This document shows positions 6,952-9,472 of a stretch of 64,000 nt of DNA, in pieces; positions within the stretch are counted from its first letter, which is position 1; each line of letters starts with the position of its first letter. The position numbers were made by a program, and so were the translations under genes. The stretch is from NCBI GenBank assembly GCA_964016885.1, contig OZ024743.1, positions 172,670,001 to 172,734,000 of the forward strand, in the 5' to 3' direction. The notes beneath the pieces were generated by a model. It was given only the letters and a program-made list of their open reading frames with translations, was not told the origin of the DNA and searched no databases. Origin of the DNA: Eledone cirrhosa (taxonomy: Eukaryota).

Positions 6952-7008
<57 letters not shown>

Positions 7009-7205
7009 GTTAAAAGTGTACATCTACATATGTATACGGAAATATTAGTATGCATATAAATACACACATGTATACATATGTACATGTACTGAGTTTTTCA
7101 CTGGACACTTTACTGTGAGTGTCCAGCTAGTCTGTATGTAACCAAACAGACAAACCGGGTTTTAGAGTCATATGGGTTTTCACATTTCCAGAGAGCCAGA
7201 CAGGA

Positions 7206-7248
7206 ATATTGGACTAGTTTCGATGTTATTACATCTCATCAGCAATAT
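7206..7248 (-). ncRNA. Minimal type I hammerhead ribozyme, intact core (unit A1)
   Basis: ATATTG CTGATGA GATGT AATA ACATC GAAA CTAGTC CAATAT: 6-bp stem I, canonical CUGAUGA, 5-bp stem II, GAAAC, palindromic minimal stem III, GUC cleavage triplet. Confidence 0.92.
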
Positions 7249-7675
7249 ATACCCATCTTCCGGCTTCTCTAGAGAATCGTAAAAGCACATATCGTTATAT
7301 GCTTTTTCTATGAAAATTAGTTGTGGCAGACTAATTTGCATAGAACGCGAGTCATTGTACGCACCGGTTCAGCGGAAACGATAAAAACAAATAACGAAAC
7401 GAAATTAAATTTCGTTTCGCTTCTAACTCACTTTTGTATGACTGACGCTTAAACAATTAAGTTAAAAGTGTACATCTACATATGTATACGGAAATATTAG
7501 TATTCATATAAATACACACATGTATACATATGTAGATGTACTGAGTTTTTCACTGGACACTTTACTGTGAGTGTCCAGCTAGTCTGTATGTAACCAAAGA
7601 GACAAACCGGGTTTTAGAGTCATACGGGTTTTCAAGGAAACACATTTCCTTTATTCTCCAGAGAGCCAGACAGGA

Positions 7676-7718
7676 ATATTGGACTAGTTTCGATGTTATT
7701 ACATCTCATCAACAATAT
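7676..7718 (-). ncRNA. Type I hammerhead with C3U core change (unit B1)
   Basis: Same as A1 except the core reads TTGATGA (plus strand CATCAAC instead of CATCAGC). Confidence 0.8.
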
Positions 7719-8128
7719 ATACCCATCTTCCGGCTTCTCTAGAGAATCGTAAAAGCACATATCGTTATATGCTTTTTCTATGAAATTAGTAGTGGGCAGA
7801 CTAATTTGCATAGAACGTGAGTCATTGTACGCACCGGTTCAGCGGGAAACGATAAAAACAAATAACGAAACGAAATTAAATTTCGTTTCGCTTCTAACTC
7901 ACTTTTGTATGACTGACGCTTAAACAATTAAGTTAAAAGTGTACATCTACATATGTATACGGAAATATTAGTATGCATATAAATACACACATGTATACAT
8001 ATGTACATGCACTGAGTTTTTCACTGGACACTTTACTGTGAGTGTCCAGCTAGTCTGTATGTAACCAAACAGACAAACCGGGTTTTAGAGTCATATGGGT
8101 TTTCACATTTCCAGAGAGCCAGACAGGA

Positions 8129-8171
8129 ATATTGGACTAGTTTCGATGTTATTACATCTCATCAGCAATAT
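8129..8171 (-). ncRNA. Minimal type I hammerhead ribozyme, intact core (unit A2)
   Basis: Identical to 7206-7248. Confidence 0.92.
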
Positions 8172-8599
8172 ATACCCATCTTCCGGCTTCTCTAGAGAAT
8201 CGTAAAAGCACATATCGTTATATGCTTTTTCTATGAAAATTAGTTGTGGGCAGACTAATTTGCATAGAACGCGAGTCATTGTCCGCACCGGTTCAGCGGA
8301 AACGATAAAAACAAATAACGAAACGAAATTAAATTTCGTTTCGCTTCTAACTCACTTTTGTATGACTGACGCTTAAACAATTAAGTTAAAAGTGTACATC
8401 TACATATGTATACGGAAATATTAGTATGCATATAAATACACACATGTATACATATGTACATGTACTGAGTTTTTCACTGGACACTTTACTGTGAGTGTCC
8501 AGCTAGTCTGTATGTAACCAAAGAGACAAACCGGGTTTTAGAGTCATACGGGTTTTCAAGGAAACACATTTCCTTTATTCTCCAGAGAGCCAGACAGGA

Positions 8600-8642
8600 A
8601 TATTGGACTAGTTTCGATGTTATTACATCTCATCAACAATAT
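8600..8642 (-). ncRNA. Type I hammerhead with C3U core change (unit B2)
   Basis: Identical to 7676-7718. Confidence 0.8.
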
Positions 8643-9052
8643 ATACCCATCTTCCGGCTTCTCTAGAGAATCGTAAAAGCACATATCGTTATATGCTTTT
8701 TCTATGAAAATTAGTAGTGGGCAGACTAATTTGCATAGAACGTGAGTCATTGTACGCACCGGTTCAGCGGAAACGATAAAAACAAATAACGAAACGAAAT
8801 TAAATTTCGTTTCGCTTCTAACTCACTTTTGTATGACTGACGCTTAAACAATTAAGTTAAAAGTGTACATCTACATATGTATACGGAAATATTAGTATGC
8901 ATATAAATACACACATGTATACATATGTACATGTACTGAGTTTTTCACTGGACACTTTACTGTGAGTGTCCAGCTAGTCTGTATGTAACCAAACAGACAA
9001 ACCGGGTTTTAGAGTCATATGGGTTTTCACATTTCCAGAGAGCCAGACAGGA

Positions 9053-9095
9053 ATATTGGACTAGTTTCGATGTTATTACATCTCATCAGCAATAT
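9053..9095 (-). ncRNA. Minimal type I hammerhead ribozyme, intact core (unit A3)
   Basis: Identical to 7206-7248. Confidence 0.92.
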
Positions 9096-9472
9096 ATACC
9101 CATCTTCCGGCTTCTCTAGAGAATCGTAAAAGCACATATCGTTATATGCTTTTTCTATGAAAATTAGTTGTGGGCAGACTAATTTGCATAGAACGCGAGT
9201 CATTGTACGCACCGGTTCAGCGGAAACGATAAAAACAAATAACGAAACGAAATTAAATTTCGTTTCGCTTCTAACTCACTTTTGTATGACTGACGCTTAA
9301 ACAATTAAGTTAAAAGTGTACATCTACATATGTATACGGAAATATTAGTATGCATATAAATACACACATGTATACATATGTACATGTACTGAGTTTTTCA
9401 CTGGACACTTTACTGTGAGCGTACAATGACTCACGTTCTATATATACTATATATACTATATATACTATATAT

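Follow-up and report, generated by a model that had tools for sequence, protein, structure and literature searches.

Strictly alternating intact and C3U hammerhead units in a retrozyme array of Eledone cirrhosa, with a probable origin by local duplication after insertion

Background

In the 64,000-nt stretch of the Eledone cirrhosa genome analysed here (contig OZ024743.1, positions 172,670,001 to 172,734,000; hereafter the window), five full tandem units of two versions, A and B, alternate strictly as A-B-A-B-A between positions 7003 and 9302, and every second unit carries a mutation in the core of its self-cleaving ribozyme. The locus raises the question of whether this alternation reflects the way in which the element replicates or events that occurred in the DNA after its insertion. 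The original prediction favoured the former, holding that the replicating unit has become a heterodimer in which B is kept as the structural partner of A. The most likely reading is an ordinary one, namely that a known ribozyme-bearing repeat has been subject to satellite-type block duplication. The likelihoods attached below to the competing readings are the authors' estimates and not computed posterior values.

The array and its two unit types

Alignment of the five full units bore out the alternation, with all the markers originally reported in phase, and likewise the C3U core in every second unit (units 2 and 4). The predicted extent, 7003 to 9302, correctly covers the five full units, but the array runs on to 9419, giving 5.25 units in total, and is followed by a 23-nt inverted piece (9419 to 9441). 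The layout is as follows:

466 to 7002, no strand: degenerate (TA)n tract of 6.5 kb with small non-TA islands, the insertion target
7003 to 7454, minus strand (the ribozyme strand): unit 1, type A, 452 nt, one private 1-nt indel
7455 to 7925, minus strand: unit 2, type B, 471 nt, C3U core, private G50T and C81G and two 1-nt indels
7926 to 8378, minus strand: unit 3, type A, 453 nt, private T85C and A376C
8379 to 8849, minus strand: unit 4, type B, 471 nt, C3U core, no private change
8850 to 9302, minus strand: unit 5, type A, 453 nt, no private change
9303 to 9419, minus strand: partial unit 6, unit positions 1 to about 117, no A/B marker and no private change
9419 to 9441, plus strand: inverted arm of 23 nt, unit positions 379 to 357, carrying T365 (the family and B state)
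9442 to 9512, no strand: (TA)n to the right of the insertion, flanking the inverted piece
7334 to 7341, plus strand: octamer ATTTGCAT, with further copies at 7804, 8258, 8729 and 9182

Type A (units 1, 3 and 5) and type B (units 2 and 4) differ by six substitutions and an 18-nt loss. The alternating markers occur at unit positions 145 (C in A, G in B), 171 (T, C), 338 (T, A) and 365 (C, T), as well as at position 258, which is G in A and A in B on the plus strand and corresponds to the cores CUGAUGA and UUGAUGA, respectively, on the minus strand. The 18-nt difference in the linker alternates in phase with these substitutions. As all five units are in phase at five substitutions and at the length difference, the A/B phase is beyond chance. 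No ORF of at least 110 amino acids is found among those listed for 7003 to 9441, and the unit is a pure tandem repeat, with no LTR, PBS or PPT. On the ribozyme strand the octamer ATTTGCAT lies about 95 nt upstream of the core, and it is kept in a related family of ~70% identity; it is taken here to be a candidate promoter element, on the model of snRNA-type promoters.

The left end of unit 1 coincides with the canonical terminus of the family (unit position 1) and adjoins (TA)n. The right end of the array is located at unit position 357, off the canonical terminus at 398, from which the 7003 to 9441 locus is likely to have been rearranged, and the second arm, represented by 9419 to 9441, was likely deleted or aborted.

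Hammerhead ribozymes

Each unit encodes one type I hammerhead on the minus strand, consisting of a 6-bp stem I, CUGAUGA, a 5-bp stem II, GAAA, ACUAGU and GUC, with UUGAUGA (C3U) in place of the usual core in units 2 and 4:

7206 to 7248, minus strand: type I hammerhead of unit 1, intact core, stem III ACUAGU; C3 at 7242, C17 of GUC at 7212
7676 to 7718, minus strand: type I hammerhead of unit 2, C3U; position 3 at 7712, C17 at 7682
8129 to 8171, minus strand: type I hammerhead of unit 3, intact core; C3 at 8165, C17 at 8135
8600 to 8642, minus strand: type I hammerhead of unit 4, C3U; position 3 at 8636, C17 at 8606
9053 to 9095, minus strand: type I hammerhead of unit 5, intact core; C3 at 9089, C17 at 9059

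The core (CUGANGA, GAAA and UH), stems I and II and the G10.1-C11.1 pair are complete in A, with C3U in B. An Rfam scan of the window returned no match at the gathering score, and the assignment rests on motif, fold and covariation in the related family, where the core and the palindrome are kept and the letters of stems I and II differ yet still pair, which supports the hammerhead fold. This related tandem family, with ~70% identity around the ribozyme, is found at L224 (8027-9600) and also at L006, L012, L024, L134 and L208; at L224 its units of 483-511 nt share the core, ACUAGU and the octamer and have different pairing stems and a GUA site.

Stem III is a 2-bp palindrome, ACUAGU, with a 2-nt loop. 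Hammerheads with a stem III too short to close alone are described as folding into double hammerheads (PMC4209133, PMC6765202), and the earlier assignment of the ribozyme to this minimal, palindromic kind agrees with its motif, its predicted fold and the account in PMC4209133. Fold prediction for the isolated motifs pairs ACUAGU between copies in the lowest-energy dimer. The explicit double fold is predicted at -15.6 kcal/mol for A-A and -15.9 kcal/mol for A-B, with the lowest-energy dimers below these values (-21.6 kcal/mol for AA and -20.4 kcal/mol for AB). In a 581-nt stretch with two ribozymes the predicted probability of ACUAGU cross-pairing is about 0.015, a low value which suggests that cleavage may be inefficient for any pair of units. 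By the strand exchange of the double fold, the A core would cut the GUC of B.

The C3G and G8C changes abolish cutting in an Anolis motif (PMC11167929), and natural U3 variants are reported as slower and presumably active (PMC7151607); the literature search returned no measured effect of C3U on hammerhead cleavage. As two of the five cores are C3U, the array is not counted as active under the rule of a 2026 preprint that calls for two consecutive complete motifs (bioRxiv 10.64898/2026.07.22.740005).

A retrozyme family with Penelope-type ends

Judged by its sequence, the array is one insertion, into (TA)n, that belongs to an abundant family of non-LTR retrozymes whose ends are of Penelope type, the name non-LTR retrozyme being applied to non-coding tandem units with type I hammerheads (PMC7229834). 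The family unit is 471 nt long with an intact core, and the family is dispersed, with 850-1337 first-look candidates per search of the 3.0-Gb genome. Comparisons were made with 402 full units at 82 other loci, drawn from probably many hundred insertions and chosen by their likeness to long or young arrays, and with the 139 units of one giant array.

Most of the insertions examined consist of back-to-back arms; among the 56 with two arms, 42 have their ends precisely at unit positions 1 and 398, and 48 have them within 3 nt of these positions. The copy at 7003 to 9441 has end 1 and an inverted arm of only 23 nt. Its flanks are (TA)n, as they are in most of the 36 locus records listed, and with (TA)n on both sides a target-site duplication would be masked. 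Inverted arms, a one-sided tail and a microsatellite target are features of Penelope-like elements (PMC8557442), and two reverse transcriptase (RT) start sites are described for an Anolis Penelope element (PMC11167929). Non-LTR retrozymes have been argued to be non-autonomous Penelope derivatives which also amplify locally (bioRxiv 10.64898/2026.07.22.740005).

GIY-YIG elements are abundant in the genome (150 matches scored of 10597 candidates). Among the matches listed for 45 GIY-YIG loci there was no autonomous partner with the 471-nt unit as its pLTR. Penelope-type RT/GIY-YIG ORF fragments adjoin retrozyme arrays at L091 (470-1690) and at L228 (1034-2556, to the right of L069). At L091 the 3' end of the ORF continues into units of the same RNA sense, and this locus is possibly a chimera formed by template switching, which could help to trace the mobilising enzyme. 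Within the left TA tract of the window, hammerhead-like motifs (CUGAAGAG...GAAAUA) occur in opposite orientation at 1375 (minus strand) and 1621 (plus strand); they resemble motifs beside GIY-YIG loci and are possibly pLTR remnants of another Penelope family.

Origin of the A and B units

Relative to the family majority, A carries C171T, A338T, T365C and the 18-nt loss, and B carries C145G, C197T and G258A (C3U), the C197T of B falling inside the stretch missing from A. The loss in A comprises two short gaps around a hairpin that is kept by all sampled relatives. B had been described as the longer unit by 18 bp; its 471 nt are instead the family length, and it is A that lost 18 nt, a loss found in none of the 402 other full units. 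By these comparisons A is not the intact ancestor, having lost a hairpin that all sampled relatives keep, and A and B are each most simply derived from the family unit by private changes.

These changes are almost entirely restricted to this locus. All three genome matches to the A junction and both matches to the C145G of B are situated in the 7003 to 9441 array. The exact pattern for the C3U context has two matches in the array and one in another subfamily (L036), such pattern counts being lower bounds, with two C3U units of the 139-unit array missed by the exact C3U pattern. Of 208 matches to the A338T pattern, with one mismatch allowed, two are exact, and both lie in the array, unit 1 being missed through its 1-nt indel. 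Across the 402 full units at 82 other loci, C145G, C197T, A338T and the 18-nt loss do not occur; C171T is found twice (in one duplicated unit) and C3U and T365C once each, all in other backgrounds. The 139-unit array has none of the A/B markers except for two independent C3U units in unrelated backgrounds. Neither the A nor the B haplotype was thus recovered among the 402 and 139 other units.

The L036 locus (1262-1731; G000:C4, about 10 Mb from the window) carries C3U and T365C among four private changes. It was considered as a source locus and rejected, as it belongs to another subfamily and is without C145G, C197T and the 18-nt loss; as the intervening markers are its own, C3U and T365C more probably recurred there than arrived by conversion.

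Changes found in all units of both arms and unique to a locus were taken to mark the RNA template, and changes private to one unit to mark decay in place. Of 48 two-armed insertions, 38 have no template-type change, seven have one, two have two and one has three. At least three unit-private changes are present in 12 of the 35 units of 19 closely related loci, which are the best matches and therefore lean young. Set against these counts, the three substitutions each of A and B, together with the deletion, fit decay in place. The inverted tail was also considered as proof of an RNA template in B phase and set aside, T365 being the family state as well. RNA editing was rejected as the origin of the A/B differences, with only one of the six substitutions being A-to-G on the RNA strand; editing-type changes show a modest excess among array-wide variants (10 of 34) and none in the subset found in both arms (2 of 14), and were therefore not used as a classifier.

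Higher-order repeats in other arrays

Forty-seven arms contain at least four full units, and with the 7003 to 9441 locus and L071 dropped there remain 45, among which L103 and L104 are two halves of one arm. Variants recur at non-adjacent spacing, with periods of 2, 4, 5, 6 and 7, in seven of these 45 other arms:

L069: period 5
L104: period 4
L105: mosaic, with an ABABA stretch
L106: periods 6 and 2
L107: period about 4
L174: periods 2 and 3
L175: periods 2 and 7

A period-2 run is also present in L068, which falls below the length cut-off of the arm count, and in the giant array (G000:C1:95.62-95.69 Mb) blocks repeat at periods 6, 7 and 9, alongside three XYXY runs. Both in L107 and in the giant array, the other arm of the insertion lacks the periodic variants, indicating that they arose and multiplied in the DNA after insertion.

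Core-mutant units number 14 of 402, in ten loci, and 20 of 139 in the giant array, 34 together. They occur singly, adjacently (L063) or at period 6 (G5A in L106, and C3A six times in the giant array), and none of these 34 units outside the 7003 to 9441 array recurs at period 2. The period-2 runs of the six other insertions (L068, L105, L106, L174, L175 and the giant array) are all without a core change. The suggestion that B is kept as a structural partner is not upheld by these arrays, where period-2 runs have intact cores and core mutants are never at period 2.

Several other insertions show related rearrangements. The giant array (G000:C1:95620991-95687170; L229-L236) is a single insertion with canonical ends 1 and 398, a left arm of 138 full units (about 65 kb) with block periods of 2, 6, 7 and 9 and 20 core-mutant units, and a right arm of one full unit; by its structure it appears to be a retrotransposed copy turning into a satellite. 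L071 contains the same two-unit insertion twice, 5.1 kb apart (1472-2572 and 6599-7698), apparently a segmental duplication which alone yields an A-B...A-B pattern. In L067 (1612-8558; G000:C2:171143111-171150057), the three inner units of each arm carry matching unit-specific variants (G207A; G147T+A148T+C204A; C204A) in mirror-image order, which would reflect either one heterogeneous multi-unit template, the copying of one arm from the other or a later exchange between arms. In L174 (G000:C1:14044305-14051459), A232G on the plus strand gives most units a stem III of ACUCGU for ACUAGU, breaking the palindrome, and T231G restores or alters stem III in four units.

Local duplication and competing explanations

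The array probably arose through decay after insertion followed by local DNA duplication of a two-unit block, giving A-B-A-B-A. A Penelope-like RT/GIY-YIG enzyme would have copied an ordinary RNA with intact cores into the TA tract, two neighbouring units would have mutated independently by genomic decay into A and B, and unequal exchange or slippage two units out of register would have repeated the A-B pair. One further loss or conversion of a single unit would have left the array ending in A and a partial unit. In transcripts of the locus, should there be any, ACUAGU would join neighbouring ribozymes by pairing, with the GUC of B expected to be cut by the A core and that of A to be cut poorly by the weakened B core; a 924-nt product is accordingly predicted as a by-product of this locus and not as the mode by which the family spreads. 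The restriction of the A/B markers to this locus and the frequency of higher-order repeats in aged arrays both speak in favour of duplication as the likely cause.

Some observations do not sit easily with duplication. The 7003 to 9441 arm is the only one examined that alternates from the first to the last full unit. Two-unit duplications of A-B-partial give ABAB-partial or ABABAB-partial; to arrive at ABABA-partial a third event is required, whereas a single passage of the RT along an alternating RNA yields it directly. The non-canonical right end (357, not 398), suggesting that the locus has been rearranged, makes this phase argument less compelling without cancelling it. Six substitutions in 924 nt would include one of the 22 core bases by chance with a probability of ~0.13. 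The mirrored variants of L067 indicate that heterogeneous templates or arm-to-arm conversion do occur, which also counts against duplication. No derived change is common to two A units, leaving the order of duplication unreadable.

A template of two units is the first alternative to be weighed. An aged source array with a C3U unit would have yielded a 924-nt RNA in which one cut was skipped, and this RNA would have been circularised and reverse-transcribed 2.6 times round. Such an origin, which is rather unlikely, would produce the strict phase of the whole arm, the odd number of full units and the canonical left end in one step, and C3U would explain the dimer length. Multimer RNAs are reported in axolotl tissue and a circular dimer as a minor product of in vitro ligation (PMC7229834), and the star-like private changes fit units of equal age. 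Genome pattern searches, however, found neither a source nor a sister copy, templates with three private substitutions occur in only one of 48 two-armed insertions, and no core mutant elsewhere belongs to a period-2 array. Furthermore, a Penelope enzyme inserted RNA with dead ribozymes equally well in vitro (PMC11167929), so that cleavage may not set the template length, which weakens the link between C3U and template size.

The phase would likewise be explained in one step if the template was a linear RNA read through from a source array, (AB)n, which DNA duplication had built; the state of the ribozymes would then be irrelevant. Unprocessed RNA is the main substrate of the Penelope enzyme in vitro (PMC11167929), and the mirrored variants in L067 fit a multi-unit linear template. 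This route is nevertheless very improbable, as it requires a source with at least six alternating units, and the marker searches found none in the assembly.

The proposal that the A and B pair evolved into an obligate heterodimer and its own replicating unit can hardly be sustained. Double-hammerhead geometry permits an A-B pair, its explicit fold being as favourable as that of A-A; A-A pairing is, however, equally possible, and A is itself a deletion derivative. None of 88 inherited array-wide substitutions falls in the 11 core positions (expected 2.1; P 0.12), a non-significant sign of purifying selection on the core that counts weakly against this proposal. Above all, it is largely refuted by uniqueness. 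The A/B markers occur at a single locus, and the expectation that other genomic arrays would keep the A-B phase failed, with the same A/B pair found at no other locus. The alternation being unique to the locus as far as searched, there is no heterodimer lineage, and what survives is a weaker form in which this one insertion was copied from dimer-length RNA, itself doubtful. Repetition of a shorter A-B array by the assembler is just as implausible: units 4 and 5 lack private changes, and homopolymer indels of 1 nt account for several of the differences, but units 2 and 4, and units 3 and 5, differ by substitutions and are not plain copies.

Implications

An array in which intact and mutant ribozymes alternate is not necessarily a heterodimeric replicon. 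The array provides a natural A/B pair for testing cross-cleavage in double hammerheads, in particular which GUC is cut when one core is C3U. There is a small likelihood that it is the fossil of a single reverse transcription on a 924-nt two-unit circular RNA, with the C3U ribozyme skipping one cut. Should this be true, it would provide direct evidence for double-hammerhead cleavage as the determinant of retrozyme template size and for the rolling of a Penelope-type RT around circular RNA, steps that are so far proposed and not demonstrated in the relevant parts of the papers cited here, and the circular template assumed for retrozyme retrotransposition would become testable from genome sequence.

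Other features of the window

Long degenerate (TA)n tracts of up to 6.5 kb are situated at 466-7002, 9782-11506, 12202-12835 and 14220-15492. Islands within them include 1201-1333 and 5020-5212, the latter resembling 11840-12030. Translations inspected by eye suggest decayed LINE-type RT/endonuclease fragments at 12830-13700, 17800-19200 (minus strand), 34000-34600 and 44200-45100 (minus strand), a gag-pol/integrase-like LTR-retrotransposon remnant at 23250-26150 and 29100-29550 (both minus strand) and a Helitron-like Rep/helicase remnant at 59900-63400 (minus strand).

Comparison with known systems

Higher-order repeats of satellites form by unequal crossover, a model to which the 2026 preprint also refers. 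As in these satellites, diverged neighbouring monomers have been multiplied as a block in the present family, with several periods side by side in single arrays (L106, L174 and the giant array); the array described here differs in having only 2.5 cycles, inside a single retrotransposed insertion.

With the metazoan non-LTR retrozymes (Cervera and de la Pena 2020, PMC7229834; Li, Clavereau and Pollet 2026) the family shares, as these are described there, non-coding tandem units of a few hundred bases and low GC content, one type I hammerhead per unit, dispersed copies ranging from monomers to long arrays and a weak palindromic stem III, as in the axolotl and newt type which needs dimers. The unit of 471 nt is above the 170-400 nt given in PMC7229834 and inside the 51-972 nt given in bioRxiv 10.64898/2026.07.22.740005. 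Retrozymes elsewhere are expressed as self-cleaving RNA in linear as well as circular form, whereas the present array is known from DNA. The literature search found no alternating or heterodimeric retrozymes, a weak negative, and the supplements of the 2026 preprint may list such arrays.

The family further shares with EN+ Penelope-like elements (Craig et al. 2021, PMC8557442; Frangieh et al. 2024, PMC11167929; Cervera and de la Pena 2014, PMC4209133) 5'-truncated arms set back to back, a 'tail' confined to one end, in agreement with two RT start sites, insertion into (TA)n and a hammerhead in the repeat. It differs from them in being without an ORF and in its tail of 74 nt, as against the 30-40 nt reported for these elements. 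The double hammerheads of newt satellite 2 and ASBVd (Forster et al. 1988, as related in PMC4209133) likewise have a palindromic stem III which is too short alone and is completed between copies; in the Eledone cirrhosa array, by contrast, one of the two partners carries U3 opposite G8.
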